The translations under genes and the position numbers were made by a program. Under the pieces are notes generated by a model. It ran no database searches, was not told where the DNA came from, and was given only the letters and a program-made list of their open reading frames with translations. From sequence record PP777464.1: a stretch of DNA of 64,000 nt; one strand, 5' to 3'. Every line of letters begins with the position of its first letter. The first letter of the stretch is position 1. Positions 46,150 to 59,973 of this stretch are shown here, one piece after another. Source of the DNA: Escherichia phage fEgEco12.

Positions 46150-46178
46150 TTGACTTATTTTGTCAGTACTGGCATAAT
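46150..46178 (+). promoter_or_regulatory. orphan promoter TTGACT-17-CATAAT (rightward)
   Basis: TTGACT 46150-46155, CATAAT 46173-46178; no ORF downstream. Confidence 0.5.
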
Positions 46179-46293
46179 GTATTCATTGGCAGATAAGCCG
46201 TAGCCCATAGGGTGCGGGAGTGTATCTATAGAAAAAGTAGTTTATTACAGTTACAATTGTGCACCCGGTGGGTTAGCTGTTGTCATGGGGTAT
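46179..46293. ncRNA. candidate small RNA locus between convergent promoters
   Basis: contains TAGCCCATAGGGTGC (46201-46215) and its near reverse complement (46260-46276); no ORF. Confidence 0.3.
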
Positions 46294-46322
46294 ATTATGC
46301 CAGTACTTGATAATGCTGTCAA
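46294..46322 (-). promoter_or_regulatory. orphan promoter on minus strand (TTGACA-17-CATAAT), convergent with 46150
   Basis: reverse complement of 46294-46322 gives TTGACA and CATAAT boxes. Confidence 0.5.
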
Positions 46323-46364
46323 TACTTTTTTTTACTATTCAGTACTGAAAACTATTTTTAAAAA

Positions 46365-51327: not shown

Positions 51328-51600
51328 ATGAACGTTAATCAAGTACTGAATGAAGTTGAAAGCATCATTAAACCAATGAAACGCATTGATGCTATGTTAA
51401 CACCGGAAGAATGCCGCCTATATGAGCGTTATAGCGTCGAACAAGTCCAGGCGATGGCTATGGCTACCCCAGCCGTTAAACCGCCTGAGAATGCGTTACA
51501 GGACGTTACAGGGGATTATATCATTAATCCAGTACTAGGGAAGATGGCTGCAATCACCGAAGATCAACAAGACTACTTAAGCCAGTACTTAAAAGGTTAA
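51328..51600 (+). CDS. hypothetical protein (90 aa)
   Basis: ATG ORF. Confidence 0.5.
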   Translation: MNVNQVLNEVESIIKPMKRIDAMLTPEECRLYERYSVEQVQAMAMATPAVKPPENALQDVTGDYIINPVLGKMAAITEDQQDYLSQYLKG

Positions 51601-51605
51601 TTAAT

Positions 51606-51815
51606 ATGCTTACTGTACAGGATAAGATCGACATCTTAAAGGTTAATATGTATGTGATTGATGCAGTACCTGGTAAAGTATTTGCATACGATGACACCAC
51701 TGTAAGCGATTTCTACTATAGCCAGGACGTGGGGGATCTTTCTGTACAGTCGGTTATTGAAAACGTAGTTAATGTAGCGTATGAGCATTTACTTTCAAAT
51801 AGTACTTGCAATTAG
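51606..51815 (+). CDS. hypothetical protein (69 aa)
   Basis: ATG 5 nt after upstream stop. Confidence 0.45.
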   Translation: MLTVQDKIDILKVNMYVIDAVPGKVFAYDDTTVSDFYYSQDVGDLSVQSVIENVVNVAYEHLLSNSTCN

Positions 51816-51866
51816 TTTTTAAACGCGTATAATGTTTTACATGAAGGGGAGAAATGATTCTCCCCA
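51802..51866 (+). promoter_or_regulatory. promoter + leader stem-loop module
   Basis: TTGCAA 51806-51811, TATAAT 51828-51833, hairpin GGGGAGAAATGATTCTCCCC. Confidence 0.65.
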
Positions 51867-51884
51867 CTAATTAAGGAATATGAA

Positions 51885-52031
51885 ATGAAAGCATCAAAAA
51901 AGAGTAATACTAAGAAAGCACGTTCACCTTTCGCTGGGGTATTCCCTTTACGTTTCGTTGATGAAGTAGTTTCCTACCCGCCGGGCCTTACTCCTGAGAT
52001 GGTAGAAAGTTTGCGTAAATCTAAAAAATAG
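51885..52031 (+). CDS. hypothetical small basic protein (48 aa)
   Basis: ATG after AAGGAA RBS; below track cutoff. Confidence 0.45.
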   Translation: MKASKKSNTKKARSPFAGVFPLRFVDEVVSYPPGLTPEMVESLRKSKK

Positions 52032-52094
52032 TACTTGCAATTAGTTTTTAGTACTGTATAATGTTTTACATGAAGGGGAGAAATGATTCTCCCC
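52031..52094 (+). promoter_or_regulatory. promoter + leader stem-loop module
   Basis: TTGCAA 52035-52040, TATAAT 52057-52062, hairpin GGGGAGAAATGATTCTCCCC. Confidence 0.65.
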
Positions 52095-52112
52095 AATAAC
52101 AGGAGAATCAAA

Positions 52113-52265
52113 ATGAAACAATACAACGCTCGGTTTGATGTTACTATCGGTAACGGCAAAGGTCAATTCTCTTTCAGTACTCGCAAAAGTTATACAGAAA
52201 ACTTCCTGCGTAATTGTGCACTGACCGCCGCACAAATTAAACATTACTTTCAGGCTAAAAAATGA
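52113..52265 (+). CDS. hypothetical small protein (50 aa)
   Basis: ATG after AGGAGAA RBS. Confidence 0.5.
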   Translation: MKQYNARFDVTIGNGKGQFSFSTRKSYTENFLRNCALTAAQIKHYFQAKK

Positions 52266-52351
52266 AATCATTAGCTTATTACAGTTCGGCCCTGGTCGGT
52301 GCATTGATCGCGGCGTTGTTAGTAACCTATCTATTCTTTATGGTGATTTAA
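52262..52351 (+). CDS. tiny hydrophobic peptide (29 aa)
   Basis: ATGA overlap; single predicted TM helix; speculative. Confidence 0.25.
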   Translation: MKSLAYYSSALVGALIAALLVTYLFFMVI

Positions 52352-52495
52352 ATGAATCCAACAGGTTTAAACTATAAAAGTTGTTCGGCGTTTACGAAAG
52401 CAAATAAAGCGAATGCACGTAAAGCGAAAGTACAGGAATACATCAAGCAAGGCATGACGCGAAAGGCGGCGATTCTAAAAGCTAAAAATAAATGA
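52352..52495 (+). CDS. small basic protein (47 aa)
   Basis: TAAATG overlap; speculative. Confidence 0.3.
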   Translation: MNPTGLNYKSCSAFTKANKANARKAKVQEYIKQGMTRKAAILKAKNK

Positions 52496-52501
52496 AAAAA
52501 G

Positions 52502-52533
52502 TGGTTGACTCCGGTCAGCCATTTTGCTATTAT
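52502..52533 (+). terminator. composite terminator-promoter (TGGTTGACTCCGGTCAGCCA; -10 TATTAT)
   Basis: right-arm variant of the left-arm hairpin family. Confidence 0.6.
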
Positions 52534-52622
52534 ATATTCATTGAGAGATAGCTCACTAGCCCACAGGGTGCATAAGTGTATCTATTATATAAGTATTGAG
52601 TACTGAAAACTATTTTTAAAAA
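52534..52622 (+). ncRNA. candidate short transcript carrying TAGCCCACAGGGTGCATAAGTGTATC motif
   Basis: between composite element and next promoter; no ORF. Confidence 0.3.
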
Positions 52623-52687
52623 GTACTTGCAAACTATCTCAATAAGCGTATAATGTTTTACATCGAAAGGGGAAACGGTTTCCCCTG
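52623..52687 (+). promoter_or_regulatory. promoter + leader stem-loop module
   Basis: TTGCAA 52627-52632, TATAAT 52649-52654, hairpin GGGGAAACGGTTTCCCC. Confidence 0.65.
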
Positions 52688-52705
52688 GTAATAAGGAAAC
52701 AAATC

Positions 52706-53047
52706 ATGACTATCTCAATTGCTCAATCTAACTTTGAAAATGAAATCATCGCCCAGGCACTGCGTTTAAATGATGGTCGGGCCGAAATTAATTACGGTTT
52801 CAATTCAGGCGGTTGTGAAAAATATCAGTACTTTGTAACGGCTGATGGCGGTGTCCTGGGTATCAATACAGTTATTGTAAACATACAGAAAATTAATTTC
52901 AATGATCCAGACGATAGCCAGTTTTACATCACTGGCGTAGACGTGAACTATGAGGATGACTCACTAACTGATGATCACACTGGCGAGCGGTTAGAAAGTG
53001 CATACGGTGAAGATGATTATCAGTCCGGTCCAGAAGATTTCGAATAA
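52706..53047 (+). CDS. hypothetical acidic protein (113 aa)
   Basis: ATG after AAGGAAA RBS. Confidence 0.55.
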   Translation: MTISIAQSNFENEIIAQALRLNDGRAEINYGFNSGGCEKYQYFVTADGGVLGINTVIVNIQKINFNDPDDSQFYITGVDVNYEDDSLTDDHTGERLESAYGEDDYQSGPEDFE

Positions 53048-53057
53048 TATAAAAAAA

Positions 53058-53121
53058 TAGTTTGACAATAGATTATAGTACTGTATAATAGTTTACATCA
53101 AGGGGAGAAAAACTTCTCCCC
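53058..53121 (+). promoter_or_regulatory. promoter + leader stem-loop module
   Basis: TTGACA 53062-53067, TATAAT 53084-53089, hairpin GGGGAGAAAAACTTCTCCCC. Confidence 0.65.
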
Positions 53122-53143
53122 ACTAACAGAGAGAAAAAACAAA

Positions 53144-53356
53144 ATGGCTAATATCTGCACTGTACTGAAAAATGCAAAACAAGTTTTATTTTCTGATCAC
53201 GATCATTTAAACAAGGATATTACTGGCGTTCGGAATATCAAAGATGTAAAAAGTGTTATGGGTATCTATTGCAATATGAAACGTGTTGGAACGTTCGGCG
53301 ACAAAGTACTATACCAGGCAGGGGATTACAATTTTACACTGACTATCATTAACTAA
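53144..53356 (+). CDS. hypothetical protein (70 aa)
   Basis: ATG after GAGAGA RBS. Confidence 0.5.
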   Translation: MANICTVLKNAKQVLFSDHDHLNKDITGVRNIKDVKSVMGIYCNMKRVGTFGDKVLYQAGDYNFTLTIIN

Positions 53357-53368
53357 AAATATTATCAC

Positions 53369-53404
53369 AGTACTATTGACATAGTTTGATAGTACTGACA
53401 TAAT
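53369..53404 (+). promoter_or_regulatory. palindrome-embedded promoter (near-duplicate of 50526-50561)
   Basis: TTGACA 53376-53381, CATAAT 53399-53404. Confidence 0.6.
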
Positions 53405-53439
53405 AACTTTTATCAACTACACTACTAAGGAATTAAAAA

Positions 53440-53619
53440 ATGGCTATCATCGCAAAAACTGAAATCGTTGGTCTGGATTCTATCATCATGACGTTTGAAG
53501 ATCAAAAAGGTATGTATGTAGTTTCATATGGTGATTATGTTCGGGAGTATGAAACGGTAGACGAAGCCTTTGAAAGTTATATTCGCCAGGTGAATAAAGC
53601 ATACGACGACTACCGCTAA
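53440..53619 (+). CDS. hypothetical small acidic protein (59 aa)
   Basis: ATG after AAGGAA RBS; below track cutoff. Confidence 0.45.
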   Translation: MAIIAKTEIVGLDSIIMTFEDQKGMYVVSYGDYVREYETVDEAFESYIRQVNKAYDDYR

Positions 53620-53630
53620 AATATATTACC

Positions 53631-53665
53631 AGTACTATTGACATAGATTGATAGTACTGTATAAT
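53631..53665 (+). promoter_or_regulatory. palindrome-embedded promoter variant
   Basis: TTGACA 53638-53643, TATAAT 53660-53665. Confidence 0.6.
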
Positions 53666-53709
53666 AAGTTTTATAAACAGTAGTTAACTTAACCTAAGAG
53701 AGAAATAAA

Positions 53710-53853
53710 ATGATCGCACTGGATTCATTCATCGACGCAGTACTGGCAAAAACTGGCGAGGATCTGACCGCAGAACAATACGCGATGATCGAGCAATGTC
53801 AGCAAAACGGTAAATCGGTGAAAGATACTGTTAAGATTATCCGCAAGATGTAA
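53710..53853 (+). CDS. hypothetical small protein (47 aa)
   Basis: ATG after AGAGAGAAA RBS; paralog of 49834-49986. Confidence 0.45.
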   Translation: MIALDSFIDAVLAKTGEDLTAEQYAMIEQCQQNGKSVKDTVKIIRKM

Positions 53854-53859
53854 TATTAT

Positions 53860-53890
53860 AGCCCACTGGTTAACGCTGGTGGGCTTTAAT
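53860..53890 (+). terminator. hairpin GCCCAC..GTGGGC containing a Chi octamer
   Basis: inverted repeat after stop; weak T-run; GCTGGTGG 53875-53882. Confidence 0.45.
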
Positions 53891-53958
53891 CATTTACCCT
53901 ATACAATGCCAGTACTAAACCGTTTATCTCGTTAGAATGCGTTACAGGACGTTTGACA

Positions 53959-54156
53959 ATGATTAGCATGAAATCAGTACAAAAACAAATAGAAACATTA
54001 TCAAAAATTAAACGTAAACAGTACTCGTTAGAATATACAATCAATGGTAACTATCATCTAATGAAAGAGAATAATTTCATTGTCATTGATGAATCATTGC
54101 AAGTTATTAGTATAGTACTGAAAGCATTAATCAATGACAGAAAAAAATTAAAATAA
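53959..54156 (+). CDS. hypothetical protein (65 aa), uncertain
   Basis: AT-rich ORF without a clear RBS; track start is TTG. Confidence 0.3.
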   Translation: MISMKSVQKQIETLSKIKRKQYSLEYTINGNYHLMKENNFIVIDESLQVISIVLKALINDRKKLK

Positions 54157-54160
54157 TCTA

Positions 54161-54189
54161 TTGACAATATCCTCCAGTACTGGCATAAT
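54161..54189 (+). promoter_or_regulatory. orphan promoter TTGACA-17-CATAAT
   Basis: TTGACA 54161-54166, CATAAT 54184-54189; leader carries AACCCATAGGGTGCAC. Confidence 0.5.
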
Positions 54190-54250
54190 ACTTACATCAA
54201 GACGAGAACGTCACTAACCCATAGGGTGCACAAATGTAACTATATAATAT
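54190..54250 (+). ncRNA. candidate short transcript with ACCCATAGGGTGC motif
   Basis: no ORF downstream. Confidence 0.3.
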
Positions 54251-54251
54251 C

Positions 54252-54324
54252 GATCAATAAATGATCAAAAAAGTACTGGATCAATTTAGCATAAGGCGTA
54301 TAATTCTGATCAATTCTTGATCAA
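54252..54324 (+). promoter_or_regulatory. cluster of five GATCAA repeats around a promoter (TATAAT 54299-54304)
   Basis: GATCAA at 54252, 54263, 54279, 54308, 54319; two pairs spaced 11 bp. Confidence 0.5.
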
Positions 54325-54485
54325 AGGCAATATACGCAGTTGAATTTATATAGACAGTACAAAGGCGTTACTATTCGTGGTAATGCTGGTGGATATGTAG
54401 TATCATATGGTTTGAATAAGATAAACACTAGTAGTATTATTGTAGCATTACAGTACTATAGTATTTTTATAATGAGGTTAAAATA

Positions 54486-54743
54486 ATGGCAGTAGGATAC
54501 GCGAAAGACGGGGCCGAACAAGACGAGATTCATGCAGTGATTCAGGCCGCCGTTAACCACGCTAGAAAGCAAATTAACGCACAAAGAGAATCACTTGTAC
54601 ATTGCCTCGACTGCGGCGATAAAATCCCTGAGAATCGACGCCAGGCCGTTATAGGGTGCATGTATTGTATTACTTGCCAGGAGGATCATGATAGTACTTT
54701 TAAAAGAGATCCGCGTAATTGTTGGCATAGATCTATGAGATAA
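54486..54743 (+). CDS. TraR/DksA-family C4 zinc-finger protein
   Basis: CLDCGDKIPENRR...CMYCITCQ C-x2-C-x17-C-x2-C motif. Confidence 0.7.
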   Translation: MAVGYAKDGAEQDEIHAVIQAAVNHARKQINAQRESLVHCLDCGDKIPENRRQAVIGCMYCITCQEDHDSTFKRDPRNCWHRSMR

Positions 54744-54748
54744 AAAGT

Positions 54749-54776
54749 ATTGACAGTACTGAAAGATAGTGTATAA
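54749..54776 (+). promoter_or_regulatory. promoter TTGACA-16-TATAAT
   Basis: TTGACA 54749-54754, TATAAT 54771-54776. Confidence 0.6.
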
Positions 54777-54806
54777 TGTTTTATATCTTAACTGAGGATA
54801 GTAATC

Positions 54807-55163
54807 ATGGGAATACAACATATCACGCGTACTACTGACAATGGCGAGATCACTGGCTATCAAGTACAGGGCAAAGTAGCACAATTGCAGTACTGGTTTG
54901 TTAAACGTGGAATCATTGCACCGGATCTTGATTATGACCGTGTAGCGTTTATTGATTCTCTTTATGTTGATCCTGATAGTCGGGGCAATGGTGAAGGTAA
55001 CGAATTAATGAATGCCTTTATTGATGCCGCCGATGATTCAGATTGTATCATCTTAGAATGCGATACGGGAGAAGATAACGCCTTTAATCTTAAAGAATGG
55101 TACGAAGGTTTCGGATTCGAGGTATTGATAGATAGTGAATATCCTATCATGATTTTATCATAG
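54807..55163 (+). CDS. GNAT-like N-acetyltransferase (small)
   Basis: VDPDSRGNGEGNELMNAF resembles GNAT motif A; C-terminal Y..GF. Confidence 0.5.
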   Translation: MGIQHITRTTDNGEITGYQVQGKVAQLQYWFVKRGIIAPDLDYDRVAFIDSLYVDPDSRGNGEGNELMNAFIDAADDSDCIILECDTGEDNAFNLKEWYEGFGFEVLIDSEYPIMILS

Positions 55164-55166
55164 TAC

Positions 55167-55223
55167 TTGCATTTAGTTTTCAGTACTGTTATAGTACTTG
55201 CATCAAGGGGAAACATCTTCCCC
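55167..55223 (+). promoter_or_regulatory. promoter + leader stem-loop module
   Basis: TTGCAT, TATAGT, hairpin GGGGAAACATCTTCCCC. Confidence 0.6.
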
Positions 55224-55241
55224 TACTAAGAGGAAATAAAA

Positions 55242-55430
55242 ATGGAAAACTTATCAAGTATTTTAGTACAAGATGATTTCGGTAATCCTGGAAGTGCTAT
55301 CATTGTTCGGGGCAATAAAGCAACGTTTGTTATTGCTGGTGGACCCGTACAGCGTAGCATTAAAAATAATGCTGTTACCATTAATAATGTACGCTATCGC
55401 TTAGATAAAGAATTAATTCATAAACTGTAA
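55242..55430 (+). CDS. hypothetical protein (62 aa)
   Basis: ATG after AGAGGAAA RBS. Confidence 0.5.
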   Translation: MENLSSILVQDDFGNPGSAIIVRGNKATFVIAGGPVQRSIKNNAVTINNVRYRLDKELIHKL

Positions 55431-55457
55431 TATTAATTTAATAGAGGATAACAATAA

Positions 55458-55781
55458 ATGTACATTCATACTACTGTCACAAAGGAAGTCCGTTGCCAGT
55501 TCGAAAGTATTCCGGGCGTATGTTTCATCACTGGTACGTTTTCCCCTGGTGATCGTGATAATCCAGTACTGTTACAGTTACGCCATCCATTATGGGATAA
55601 AGCATTTGATCTGCCGTTGAATGAATTCGCAACCACTGCTGATAAGTACATTAAAAATATTCGCGAGAATGATTGCCTATTCATTAATGCTTTTAGTGAT
55701 GCCGCGTTAAGTGAGATCCATGCTGTATTGGTTGCAATCATGGAATCAATGGAGAAAACTATATTCAAACAAGGTGAATAA
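55458..55781 (+). CDS. hypothetical protein (107 aa)
   Basis: ATG after GAGGA RBS. Confidence 0.55.
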   Translation: MYIHTTVTKEVRCQFESIPGVCFITGTFSPGDRDNPVLLQLRHPLWDKAFDLPLNEFATTADKYIKNIRENDCLFINAFSDAALSEIHAVLVAIMESMEKTIFKQGE

Positions 55782-55786
55782 AAACT

Positions 55787-55846
55787 ATTGACAATGCAAT
55801 CCAGTACTGTATAATAGTTTACATGAAGGGGAGAAATGATTCTCCC
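55787..55846 (+). promoter_or_regulatory. promoter + leader stem-loop module
   Basis: TTGACA 55787-55792, TATAAT 55808-55813, hairpin GGGGAGAAATGATTCTCCCC. Confidence 0.65.
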
Positions 55847-55864
55847 CACTAAGAGGAAAGAAAA

Positions 55865-56077
55865 ATGCAAGGTCAACTAATCGTTCGTAAATGGTCTGAT
55901 ACTAACGAAAAACCGTGGGATGTACAATACATCGCCCCAAATGGTGAATCCAGATATCAACCAGGTGTAACGCATAGTACTGAGCAATTCGCCGCCGCTC
56001 ATCGCGAACGTCTGTTACAATCAATGCAGCAAGGTTCCGGTGAAAAATTCATTCAGGATCATTGGCTGAAAGATTAA
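55865..56077 (+). CDS. hypothetical protein (70 aa)
   Basis: ATG after AGAGGAAAG RBS. Confidence 0.55.
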   Translation: MQGQLIVRKWSDTNEKPWDVQYIAPNGESRYQPGVTHSTEQFAAAHRERLLQSMQQGSGEKFIQDHWLKD

Positions 56078-56085
56078 AAAAGTAC

Positions 56086-56143
56086 TTGCACAGTACTGAA
56101 TAAAGTGTATAATGTTTTATATCGGAAGGGGAATAGTTCCCCT
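56086..56143 (+). promoter_or_regulatory. promoter + leader stem-loop module
   Basis: TTGCAC 56086-56091, TATAAT 56108-56113, hairpin AGGGGAATAGTTCCCCT. Confidence 0.65.
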
Positions 56144-56164
56144 CCTAACAAAGAGGAAAGTATA

Positions 56165-56338
56165 ATGGTCCAGGTAGAATTAACAGTACTGAAAGATCTG
56201 TTTTATCGGATTGGTACTACTGGCGAATATCCGAAGGGTGATAATGCAAAACTTTACGTATCACTCGACTTATGGCAACGCGAACAATTAGCAACGGCCT
56301 GGCGTAAAGGCAAAGCAGATCGAGAGGTGAAAGCATGA
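56165..56338 (+). CDS. hypothetical small protein (57 aa)
   Basis: ATG after AGAGGAAAG RBS. Confidence 0.5.
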   Translation: MVQVELTVLKDLFYRIGTTGEYPKGDNAKLYVSLDLWQREQLATAWRKGKADREVKA

Positions 56339-56484
56339 AAGAATTCTTATTTGAAGTAGTGTTTCAAGGTGTCGGTAATAACCAACTGATTCGATCAAGT
56401 GGTTATAATGTTAACCAGGCATGGAATAACATTAAACAAATGTACCCGAACGCTATCACATATCGCAACCCGAAAGAAGTTTAA
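56335..56484 (+). CDS. hypothetical small protein (49 aa)
   Basis: ATGA overlap; below track cutoff. Confidence 0.4.
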   Translation: MKEFLFEVVFQGVGNNQLIRSSGYNVNQAWNNIKQMYPNAITYRNPKEV

Positions 56485-56498
56485 AAATATTTGAAAAA

Positions 56499-56532
56499 GG
56501 GATTGACTCCGGTCAGTCCCTTTGCTATTATA
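56499..56532 (+). terminator. composite terminator-promoter (GGGATTGACTCCGGTCAGTCCC; -10 TATTAT)
   Basis: hairpin + TTTGC; TTGACT inside stem. Confidence 0.65.
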
Positions 56533-56622
56533 TACGCATAGAAACAAATTAGCCCACAGGGTGCATAAATGTATCTATTGTTTGCTGGTGGCTAGTACTG
56601 AAAACTATTTTTAAAAAAGTAC
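56533..56622 (+). ncRNA. candidate short transcript with TAGCCCACAGGGTGCATAAATGTATC motif and Chi octamer
   Basis: no ORF; GCTGGTGG 56584-56591. Confidence 0.3.
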
Positions 56623-56650
56623 TTGCATTGTACTTAGAATCAAGTATAAT
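56623..56650 (+). promoter_or_regulatory. promoter TTGCAT-16-TATAAT
   Basis: TTGCAT 56623-56628, TATAAT 56645-56650. Confidence 0.6.
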
Positions 56651-56651
56651 G

Positions 56652-56738
56652 TTTTACATCAGGACGGGGAACGAAATAAGTAACCCCGTTAAGTAGTCCA
56701 GGAGTAAGACATACGAAAAACTCCCCTGATAAAATAGT
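56652..56738 (+). ncRNA. candidate small RNA / structured leader (copy 2 of duplicated element)
   Basis: near-identical to 46398-46486; no ORF. Confidence 0.35.
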
Positions 56739-56766
56739 TTGACAATAGAAAGTAAACGAGTATAAT
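56739..56766 (+). promoter_or_regulatory. promoter TTGACA-16-TATAAT
   Basis: TTGACA 56739-56744, TATAAT 56761-56766. Confidence 0.6.
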
Positions 56767-56799
56767 ACTTACATCAACCACTGATAAGGAAACATTAAA

Positions 56800-57075
56800 A
56801 TGCGGACTTTACTTACAGCTAACGAAATCGAGCAAGTACTGACTACTAATCTGGAACAATGGAAACGTGAAGCAGATATCCAGGCGGTTCAATGCCTTAA
56901 CGATAAGTTAACGCCAGATGACTTAAGCACGATTGTTGATCCACAATTTTATGAAGATATTCACGACACGTCTTTAAGCGTCGAGGATGTACTTGATAAG
57001 CACTACATTGATACTGATTTACATGTTTACGGTCGTAAAAACTTTATCACTATTCACGACATTTACAATACTTAA
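56800..57075 (+). CDS. hypothetical protein (91 aa)
   Basis: ATG after AAGGAAA RBS. Confidence 0.55.
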   Translation: MRTLLTANEIEQVLTTNLEQWKREADIQAVQCLNDKLTPDDLSTIVDPQFYEDIHDTSLSVEDVLDKHYIDTDLHVYGRKNFITIHDIYNT

Positions 57076-57078
57076 GTA

Positions 57079-57140
57079 TTGACAAAGTATCTTAGTACTG
57101 TATAATAGTTTACATCAAGTGAGGGGAAACGGTTCCCCTC
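57079..57140 (+). promoter_or_regulatory. promoter + leader stem-loop module
   Basis: TTGACA 57079-57084, TATAAT 57101-57106, hairpin GAGGGGAAACGGTTCCCCTC. Confidence 0.65.
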
Positions 57141-57163
57141 CTAACAAAGAGAGAGAAATAAAA

Positions 57164-57346
57164 ATGGCTAAGTGCACTATCTGTAATAAAGAAATAGTAT
57201 TAGTTCCAAGTGCCCGTGAACGTGCCGCTCGGTTCGGTGGCAAAGCGTCAGACTATACAAAAATGTTTACTGCCCATACAGCTTGCCAGGTAGCAAAACG
57301 TTCACAAGAAAGCGTAGAATTAATGCGTAAACTTTCCAAAAAATAA
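57164..57346 (+). CDS. small protein with CxxC (60 aa)
   Basis: ATG after AGAGAGAGAAA RBS. Confidence 0.5.
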   Translation: MAKCTICNKEIVLVPSARERAARFGGKASDYTKMFTAHTACQVAKRSQESVELMRKLSKK

Positions 57347-57349
57347 GTA

Positions 57350-57411
57350 TTGACAAAGTATCTTAGTACTGTATAATAGTTTACATCAAGCGAGGGGAAT
57401 AGTTCCCCTCC
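57350..57411 (+). promoter_or_regulatory. promoter + leader stem-loop module (duplicate of 57079-57140)
   Basis: TTGACA 57350-57355, TATAAT 57372-57377, hairpin GAGGGGAATAGTTCCCCTC. Confidence 0.65.
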
Positions 57412-57433
57412 TAACAAAGAGAGAGAAATAAAA

Positions 57434-57757
57434 ATGGCTATGATCCTTGCCCAGAAAGTAGAATTGAAAATTGTAACCTCCTTTGACATTAACGTTAATC
57501 GGTGGACTGATTCACACGGCAATACTTACCACTCTTGCTACGTGTCTGCGTTAATTGGCGACCGCTGGGAAGACCTGGGACACGAAACCTTTACATACGG
57601 TTACGGTACACAAGGCGAATACACGGGCTTGGAGATCATTAAAGAAACCGTTATAGGTTTCAACCCGAAAGAAAAAGTTATTCATCGCATCGAGGAAGAG
57701 ATCAACAAAGAAATAACAGTTCGCTACCACGATGTAAAACGTAAGAAAGACATGTAA
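57434..57757 (+). CDS. hypothetical protein (107 aa), paralog of 50603-50926
   Basis: shared NRWTDSHGNTYHSC block. Confidence 0.55.
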   Translation: MAMILAQKVELKIVTSFDINVNRWTDSHGNTYHSCYVSALIGDRWEDLGHETFTYGYGTQGEYTGLEIIKETVIGFNPKEKVIHRIEEEINKEITVRYHDVKRKKDM

Positions 57758-59767: not shown

Positions 59768-59800
59768 GGGATTGACTCCGGTCAGTCCCTTTGCTATTAT
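59768..59800 (+). terminator. composite terminator-promoter (GGGATTGACTCCGGTCAGTCCC; -10 TATTAT)
   Basis: same element as 56499 and 62520. Confidence 0.65.
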
Positions 59801-59893
59801 ATATCCATTGAGAGATAACTCACTGACCCATAGGGTGCGGAAGTGTATCTATTATATAAGTATTCAGTACTGAAAACTATTTTTAAAAAAGTA
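59801..59893 (+). ncRNA. candidate short transcript with ACCCATAGGGTGCGGAAGTGTATC motif
   Basis: no ORF before next promoter. Confidence 0.3.
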
Positions 59894-59954
59894 CTTGCAT
59901 TGTACTTAGAATCAAGTATAATGTTTTATATCGAGAGGGGGAATGGTTCTCCCT
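59894..59954 (+). promoter_or_regulatory. promoter + leader stem-loop module
   Basis: TTGCAT 59894-59899, TATAAT 59917-59922, hairpin GGGGGAATGGTTCTCCC. Confidence 0.65.
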
Positions 59955-59973
59955 GGCAATAAGGAATAAAATC

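Follow-up and report, generated by a model that had tools for sequence, protein, structure and literature searches.

Promoters governed by Dam methylation and SeqA include pIN of IS10 and the cre promoters of phage P1, and pR of phage lambda is stimulated by SeqA. To our knowledge, GATC clusters that couple transcription to methylation or replication are known for chromosomal genes, transposons, and temperate phages, whereas the early programme of a jumbo lytic phage has provided no such case. The element considered here is an array of five GATCAA hexamers at positions 54252–54324 of a 64,000-nucleotide stretch of Escherichia phage fEgEco12 (PP777464.1; "the window" below), which lies on a putative promoter, P2, upstream of a gene for a zinc-finger protein of the TraR/DksA type. 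No description of this array was found in the literature searched. The array likely, though far from certainly, regulates P2 in cis and may also act as a road-block to read-through from an upstream promoter, P1; its single most likely reader, put forward tentatively, is GATC methylation together with SeqA.

SeqA prefers GATC sites spaced by about 10 or 20 bp and represses dnaAp2 of E. coli through such sites (PMC2912659). Like this documented promoter, the array has GATC in and around the core promoter, pairs about one helical turn apart, and a host Dam (PMC2912659). In contrast to the SeqA/Dam promoters described, it lies in the terminal-repeat early region of a strictly lytic jumbo phage, is carried on an accessory cassette, and has extra flanks that give TTGATCAA. 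Moreover, the surrounding genome is depleted of GATC, and the array is its only candidate SeqA target.

The GATC array on the P2 promoter

The whole window matches Escherichia phage Ecwhy_1 (MH791411.1) with 100% identity; this phage is a jumbo myovirus of the 121Q/PBECO4-like kind (genus Asteriusvirus) with a genome of about 350 kb. In phage vB_Ec-M-J, the orthologous stretch lies at 11.9–12.4 kb within an annotated direct terminal repeat of 21.5 kb, and in phage records of 366–386 kb it is present twice. Genome-wide counts were made on the complete 121Q genome (348.5 kb), pieced together from seven segments.

The GATCAA hexamers start at 54252, 54263, 54279, 54308, and 54319 on the + strand, which also carries P1, the box, P2, gp293, and the zinc-finger gene described below, so that five sites fall within 72 bp at spacings of 11, 16, 29, and 11 bp; the sequence bears out the initial annotation, which had listed these five hexamers and two pairs 11 bp apart. 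The array is the densest GATC cluster in the window, holding five of the 139 GATC present. For GATC alone, such a cluster has P = 0.002 under uniform placement in the 64-kb window. GATCAA occurs 14 times on the + strand of the window (5/14 in the array), and 5-site clusters of this kind are expected 3e-8 times in the window and 1.4e-7 times in the 348.5-kb 121Q genome. In 121Q, the orthologous five-site cluster is the sole place with at least four GATC in 80 bp. The cluster is non-random, far beyond chance, and unique in the 121Q genome.

The remainder of that genome is poor in GATC, with 620 copies observed against 1090–1180 expected, i.e., about 0.5 of expectation, or a roughly two-fold depletion. 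The depletion is uneven: the ratio of observed to expected is 0.49 in the bulk of the genome but 0.87 in the early region (135–157 kb, corresponding to about 42–64 kb of the window), and GATC density is 4.0 per kb in the terminal-repeat early region versus 1.6 per kb elsewhere. At the other strong early promoters of 121Q, about 40 in number, the interval from −75 to +45 is free of GATC, save for spill-over from the ends of coding regions.

P2 is recognized by a −10 hexamer TATAAT (54299–54304), a 16-bp spacer, and a −35 position (54277–54282) in which TGGATC replaces TTGCAA (TTGATC in the PBECO4-type allele). Upstream of it there is an A-tract resembling an UP element, AAAAAAGTA (54267–54275), which is common to the paralogous P2 promoters. 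The start is inferred at about 54311, being set 7 nt after the −10 hexamer. The −10 element GTATAATTCT is invariant in all 13 aligned sequences, while the sequence on both sides of it diverges between alleles. Relative to this inferred start, site 1 (54252–54257; GATC invariant in 13/13) is centred at about −57.5 and site 2 (54263–54268), 11 bp away and followed by the A-tract, at about −46.5. Site 3 (54279–54284, centre about −30.5) sits in the −35 position. Sites 4 and 5 (54308–54324, centres −1.5 and +9.5) form a perfect 17-bp palindrome, TGATCAA-TTC-TTGATCA, which overlaps the inferred start and adjoins the AAGG Shine-Dalgarno of gp293, the first gene downstream; the segment 54317–54324 is the full 8-bp palindrome TTGATCAA. 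The sites thus lie on the functional parts of the promoter, namely two at the UP-element position, one in the −35, and, in the allele with five sites, two over the start. As is expected of Dam/SeqA-regulated promoters, at least two GATC lie in or overlap core elements.

The ancestry of P2 can be read from its relatives. The early promoter that is repeated in this region has the form AAAAAGTAC-TTGCAA-N16-TATAAT, of which P2 is a diverged copy. At about 52619 and 56616, paralogous promoters read AAAAGTAC-TTGCAA-N16-TATAAT, compared with AAAAGTAC-TGGATC-N16-TATAAT in P2, so the initial annotation was correct in placing TGGATCA where TTGCAA is usual. Larger paralogous modules, at about 52498–52700, 56496–56700, and 59770–59960, consist of P1, a conserved box, AGTACTGAAAACTATTTTTAAAAAGTAC, and a P2 of the TTGCAA-N16-TATAAT type; in the GATC-bearing copy, the A/T stretch upstream of the −35 is replaced by two GATCAA sites. 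Judging from this comparison, P2 is a descendant of the standard early promoter of the phage (UP-like A-tract, TTGCAA, 16 bp, TATAAT) and is a putative secondary early promoter within an accessory cassette. Early transcripts of the P2 family (52655–52690, 56655–56690, and 59920–59955) open with a conserved TTTACATC, and a G+C hairpin comes after it, just ahead of the Shine-Dalgarno; the P2 with the GATC sites is without the TTTACATC leader.

Arbiol et al. (2010) are said to have described PeSL elements as mobile early-promoter cassettes of T4-type phages. Compared by description only, both are repeated early sigma-70 promoter modules with conserved leaders and tiny open reading frames (ORFs), situated in a hyperplastic region with indels and recombinant alleles. 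The module described here differs in being a tandem of P1, box, and P2 of about 200 bp, one copy of which has gained a GATC array.

The accessory cassette and its alleles

The array belongs to a 330-bp cassette situated between gp292 and the zinc-finger gene, which comprises P1, the box, the array with P2, and gp293. Its boundaries were placed by alignment with G17 and UE-S1, both of which are without it. On the left, a 10-bp direct repeat TTAAAATAAT (54148–54157) contains the gp292 stop TAA (54154–54156), and on the right a second copy of TTAAAATAAT (54478–54487) overlaps the zinc-finger start codon. The full-length cassette is found in 26 Asteriusvirus records matching the region, and all 330 bp are missing in seven phages (G17, Sharanji, ECO103 4-12-1, EC22.5-2, phAPEC6, UE-S1, and ph0011), where the gp292 stop overlaps the zinc-finger ATG and the zinc-finger gene is translationally coupled to gp292. 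The cassette is an insertion/deletion polymorphism within the genus; the cassette-less junction reads AAAAAGGTTAAAATAATGG, which is not the product of a simple crossover between the two TTAAAATAAT repeats. A blastn search with the cassette against 5,426 E. coli genomes gave no match, so there is no sign of its host or prophage origin.

An alignment of 13 sequences resolves three alleles. Type A, found in Ecwhy_1, 121Q, and others, has five sites and is the only one with sites 4 and 5. Type B (PBECO4, slurp01, Salmonella SD phages, and E9.1) has four sites, all upstream of the −10, which read TTGATCAA, TGATCT, GATCAA, and TTGATCAA, and its −35 is TTGATC. Type C, known from two metagenome contigs, joins the left half of type A to the right half of type B, retaining three sites and being without the two downstream ones. 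The P1 hexamers, the leader with the box, GATC sites 1–3, and the P2 −10 are invariant in 13/13 sequences. Within the 40 bp from 54250 to 54289, 10 differences separate types A and B. The 12 GATC positions are free of them (hypergeometric p = 0.015), and five turn AAAAAAG into TGATCAA, i.e., create a new site in type B. Such a pattern of conserved or re-created cores argues for selection on the GATC motif across alleles, with the caveat that the left half has a recent shared ancestry, so that conservation by itself carries little weight.

It could be supposed that the cluster is a functionless by-product of duplication, slippage, or gene conversion of an 11-bp unit in a decaying copy of P2, tolerated because P1 transcribes the genes anyway. 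The cassette is indeed a dispensable mosaic, known as three recombinant alleles and flanked by direct repeats of 10 bp; both the −35 of P2 and its usual TTTACATC leader are degraded compared with the paralogues, the downstream sites are not conserved, and GATC is not depleted in the early region (observed/expected 0.87). However, the repeat units share the GATCAA cores alone while their spacers differ (6/11 identity for the pair of sites 4 and 5), which is a signature of selection and not of recent slippage. Types A and B have acquired the same motif independently and not at the same positions, the GATC cores of the diverged stretch bear no substitution (p = 0.015), the P2 −10 is invariant, and chance clusters are expected at about 1e-7. 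This explanation is, therefore, considered unlikely.

Possible readers of the array

The array is probably a local regulatory switch. The initial annotation had proposed a methylation- or repressor-gated switch controlling an RNA polymerase modulator; the idea of a switch is plausible and has been somewhat strengthened, whereas its link to the modulator has been weakened because gp293 comes first, P1 also feeds the operon, the cassette is accessory, and distant orthologues of the zinc-finger gene are without an array. Dam and SeqA are ranked first among the possible readers because the cluster is unique in a GATC-depleted genome, a GATC occupies the −35, the pairs are 11 bp apart, and Dam activities are available. 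The host, E. coli, has Dam, and 121Q encodes gp417, a PF05869 Dam-family N6-adenine methyltransferase (E = 7e-32) whose Ecwhy_1 copy is 92% identical; methyltransferases of the gp417 type are also present in phages without the cassette.

The mechanism may be envisaged as follows. The array would be read via its GATC cores, with incoming virion DNA fully methylated by the host Dam or by the Dam-family enzyme of the phage. On fully methylated DNA, RNA polymerase would use P2, and P1 transcripts would read through. Replication would yield hemimethylated DNA, to which host SeqA might bind cooperatively at the 11-bp-spaced pairs; bound SeqA would occlude P2, whose sites span −57 to +10, and impede read-through. 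In addition, the methylated A in the −35 may directly alter recognition by sigma-70. As a result, gp293 and the zinc-finger protein, and possibly also the GNAT gene downstream, would undergo a replication-coupled change in expression. The two 11-bp pairs fit the published SeqA spacing (PMC2912659); the other spacings are 16 bp (14–17 bp among isolates) and 29 bp. Cooperative SeqA binding would also call for sites that share a face of the helix and are less than about 50 bp apart.

Several observations weigh against reading by Dam and SeqA. The P1 and P2 starts are deduced from the hexamers, and the upstream P1 may dominate expression regardless of P2. The methyltransferase of the phage is assigned by family, and its action on GATC is putative. 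The left half of the cassette was recently common to the alleles, as the recombinants indicate, so the conservation of sites 1–3 partly reflects shared ancestry; the pair of sites 4 and 5 is confined to one allele, and phage Turkey5 has lost site 5. Among isolates, the A-tract that separates sites 2 and 3 (54267–54272) varies from 4 to 7 A, with the spacing ranging from 14 to 17 bp; therefore, strict helical phasing is not kept, and the distance of the upstream pair to the −35 shifts. The cassette as a whole is dispensable, as the seven genomes missing it attest. Finally, the sites share (T)TGATCAA flanks, which are needed by neither Dam nor SeqA and point to a sequence-specific reader.

Indeed, AA lies 3′ of all five sites and T lies 5′ of most, giving (T)TGATCAA, and several sites are the full TTGATCAA (CGGATCCG is a flank-altered form of TTGATCAA in which the GATC core is kept). 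The array may, therefore, be an operator or activator site for a dimeric protein that recognizes (T)TGATCAA or TGATCAA-N3-TTGATCA irrespective of methylation, such as a phage regulator of early promoters, a MotA-like factor that stands in for the missing −35, or a protein of the host, for instance Fis. In type B, 3/4 sites have the 3′ AA, and it is the whole TGATCAA, not merely GATC, that has been re-created. Each 11-bp pair makes a 15–17-bp inverted repeat of the form TGATCAA-N3-TTGATCA, the typical geometry of a dimer site, and 17-mers of this form (≤2 mismatches) occur nowhere else in the window; such geometry suits SeqA and a dimeric sequence-specific protein equally well. A weak −35 with sites at −57, −46, and −30 would also suit an activator-dependent promoter. 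On the other hand, no candidate protein has been identified, a single array in the genome implies a regulator with a single target, and the A/T-rich context raises the chance of AA and TT flanks. IHF, FNR, and DnaA motifs were not found in the region. GATCAATAAATGATC fits GNNYAWWWWWTRNNC, the degenerate Fis consensus, and this fit is given no weight; matches to the consensus, sites 1 and 2 among them, are at chance level in the window (7 vs. 5.6 expected). On balance, a methylation-independent dimeric reader is nearly as probable as Dam and SeqA, though less likely than not, in view of the shared flanks and the re-created TGATCAA.

A global phage repressor with many operators is ruled out, there being no other such cluster in the 121Q genome and no other 17-mer palindrome in the window. 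Obligatory control of the zinc-finger gene by the array is likewise ruled out by the cassette-less genomes and by the orthologue in Salmonella phage Munch, which is preceded by a terminator and a Shine-Dalgarno and has no GATC cluster.

Arrays of similar hexamers also serve in packaging and replication. The pac site of phage P1 consists of seven TGATCA/G hexamers in two groups, which are read by pacase according to their Dam methylation state (PMC10028697). Both pac and the present array are composed of TGATCA-type hexamers with GATC cores, arranged in two groups within about 70–160 bp of phage DNA; the array differs in having five sites and not seven, in lying on a promoter and not in a terminase gene, in being 12 kb inside a repeat, and in being missing in close relatives. 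As for origins, the left 13-mer region of oriC and the heptamer repeats of the P1 plasmid oriR were reportedly both found to be bound by SeqA (Brendler, Abeles and Austin, 1995). Those cores likewise have about five GATC within 60–70 bp of A+T-rich DNA; the array, however, is without DnaA boxes, iterons, and the 13-mer consensus, is dispensable, and has the opposite flank polarity.

The notion that the array is an accessory origin core (of the oriC 13-mer or P1 oriR type) or a set of TGATCA sites like P1 pac draws on the presence of five GATC in about 70 bp of about 75% A+T DNA downstream of a strong promoter, on the fact that 3/5 sites are TGATCA in a 3 + 2 arrangement, reminiscent of the two groups of pac hexamers (PMC10028697), and on the location in the terminal repeat. 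Against it, the array is placed about 12 kb inside the 21.5-kb repeat and not at the genome end, and it is missing in seven related genomes; these two features set it apart from a P1 pac-type array. No DnaA boxes, oriC-type 13-mers (GATCTnTTnTTTT), or IHF site were found, and a motif scan of 54000–54600 detected neither TTWTNCACA nor GATCTNTTNTTTT; with no DnaA box and no 13-mer in that interval, the array is unlike an origin core of the oriC or P1 oriR type as well. Furthermore, the GATC flanks are A-rich on the 3′ side, opposite to those of the oriC 13-mers, and sequestration by SeqA would be counter-productive for a lytic phage. A role in replication or packaging is thus very unlikely.

In its boldest form, the proposal would be that a single GATC array serves a GATC-depleted lytic jumbo phage as a replication-coupled epigenetic timer, or else that TTGATCAA is the operator of a phage regulator; in this form, it is doubtful. 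In the timer version, the methylated incoming terminal repeat would express gp293 and the YbiI/TraR-like factor from P2 and P1, until the first round of replication rendered the sites hemimethylated and host SeqA turned the operon off. In the operator version, a phage regulator reading TTGATCAA would substitute for the −35, as MotA does in T4.

Whichever reader is involved, a phage purged of half its GATC retains a single dense array, renewed among alleles, on one promoter, and a putative RNA polymerase secondary-channel factor is encoded downstream. If SeqA and Dam read it, the array would be a simple clock that signals the onset of replication; if a dedicated protein does, it would represent a new operator–regulator pair in phages whose early regulation is essentially uncharted. 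The natural variants (no cassette; 3, 4, or 5 sites; A-tracts of 4–7) are ready genetic controls. The array is of modest practical value, since phages can do without the cassette and any effect may be small. A search of IMG/VR with a degenerate GATC-array pattern returned more than 120 unrelated matches, essentially chance, and was uninformative.

P1, the downstream genes, and the early region

P1 (54161–54189) is a strong early promoter of the sigma-70 type, TTGACA-17-CATAAT with TG upstream of the −10 (scan score 11/12 with TG), and its start would lie at about 54196. Both hexamers are invariant in the 13 sequences, and the spacer is variable. P1 lies 115 bp upstream of P2. No terminator separates the two promoters, and folding the P1 leader RNA as far as and across the array gives no significant stability (z = −1.84); therefore, P1 transcripts should read through the array. 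All five sites would then be present in the inferred P1 transcript, at about +56 to +128, and site 5 (UUGAUCAAAGG) touches the AAGG Shine-Dalgarno of gp293, so it is conceivable that GAUCAA repeats in the leader bind a translational regulator or guide a nuclease and thereby control gp293. Such control at the RNA level is most improbable: besides having no significantly stable fold, the leader has no Rfam match, the motif is a DNA palindrome placed on promoter elements, and other alleles have the same Shine-Dalgarno without sites 4 and 5.

The box between P1 and P2, CCCATAGGGTGCACAAATGTA (54218–54238), is invariant in the 13 sequences. It has five copies in the window and five in 121Q, all of the latter between 138 and 152 kb, and the element made up of P1 and the box is found only in the terminal-repeat early region. 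Its loci are 46172–46302 (both strands), 52498–52585, 54161–54240, 56496–56578, and 59770–59850; at about 46160–46330, two copies converge. The layout is TTGACx-17-yATwAT, followed about 35 nt later by CCCAYAGGGTGCRYAARTGTA and then, at a fixed distance, by a −10-like TAT(T/A)(A/G)T. The element is kept in non-coding DNA of the Klebsiella phages RaK2, K64-1, and Muenster and of the Erwinia phage Hallingskeid, and it may be a phage-specific promoter or protein site. A comparison of seven copies revealed no compensatory changes in a hairpin in the box, and an Rfam scan of 51500–57500 (E up to 1) gave only a sub-threshold S15-leader match elsewhere. An exact search for the box in IMG/VR returned 121Q itself and nothing else, and the same search in metagenomes yielded the two contigs that bear the recombinant type C allele.

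The zinc-finger gene is not the nearest gene downstream of the array, as had initially been thought, since a 48-codon ORF with a TTG start, gp293 (54340–54486), comes first. gp293 is annotated in 121Q, matches PHROG 38664 at E = 3.7e-31, and has a stop codon overlapping the zinc-finger ATG. It is open only in its own frame in two alleles that are about 70% identical, and the differences by codon position are 11/9/19. Because of this single open frame and the concentration of differences at third codon positions, gp293 is probably a real small gene, though its start, TTG or GTG, is weak.

The assignment of 54486–54743 to a TraR/DksA-type C4 zinc finger proved right. The 85-residue product belongs to PF01258 (E = 3.7e-9; 36.9 bits vs. 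the cut-off of 24.9), has the motif CxxC-N17-CxxC, and matches PHROG 54 at E = 8e-19. Among PDB structures, YbiI (2KGO) is matched over the full length at E = 2.4e-11 and TraR (6N57/5W1S) at E = 5e-6, so by similarity the protein is closer to E. coli YbiI than to TraR, with which its helix and finger region aligns. It differs from the TraR, DksA, and YbiI regulators in having an extra conserved C-terminal tail, FKRDPRNCWHRSMR (PHROG 25948). The acidic tip residues lie in DxxDxA in DksA and are D3 and D6 in TraR. In the phage protein, the N-terminus MAVGYAKDGAEQDE, with D8, E11, D13, and E14, aligns to MASGWANDDAVNEQ of YbiI, and its acidic-tip motif is not clearly DxxD. Over-expression of YbiI is said to rescue the dksA auxotrophy (PMC2613031; data not shown there), and it is a reasonable inference from the family that the zinc-finger protein acts at RNA polymerase's secondary channel (PMC2613031). 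Three further GATC occur within 50 bp at 54684–54733, in the part of the gene that encodes the conserved C-terminal tail; Salmonella phage Munch shares at least two of these, and the coding sequence is probably what constrains them.

The early-gene zone as a whole contains tiny ORFs by the dozen on the + strand, and a sigma-70 promoter close to the consensus stands before each of them. In Rak2-like phages, the early and terminal-repeat regions are reported to be where RpoD-like promoters with UP-like elements are concentrated (PMC5259590). Two sigma factors are also encoded in 121Q, at 89267–90232 and 321985–322824, outside the window: gp167 is of the sigma-70 family and has regions 2, 3, and 4, and gp591 is a separate late factor without a Pfam match; phage-specific promoter classes are, therefore, to be expected, the box element possibly among them.

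The composition of the genome is unusual with respect to other short palindromes as well. GCGC is wholly missing, both from the 64-kb window and from the 348.5-kb 121Q genome (0 copies in each vs. about 160 expected). This points to an extreme avoidance of some nuclease specific for GCGC, although 121Q encodes a C5 cytosine methyltransferase (gp91, PF00145). The palindrome AGTACT is in massive excess: the window has 290 copies and 121Q has 903, vs. about 117 expected from base composition, and its density in the early region reaches 6.3 per kb (examples are at 54176, 54272, 54452, 54693, and 54755). It stands directly 5′ of early-promoter −35 elements (AGTAC-TTGCAA) and adjoins −10 elements (AGTACTG-TATAAT), and it is common elsewhere too.

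Finally, the tiny early ORFs at 53440–53619, 54340–54486, and 55242–55430 have a common motif of the type hhhRG..(G)xYVVSYG, which reads MYVVSYG in gp290 and GYVVSYG in gp293. This similarity hints at a paralogous family of small beta-rich early proteins.

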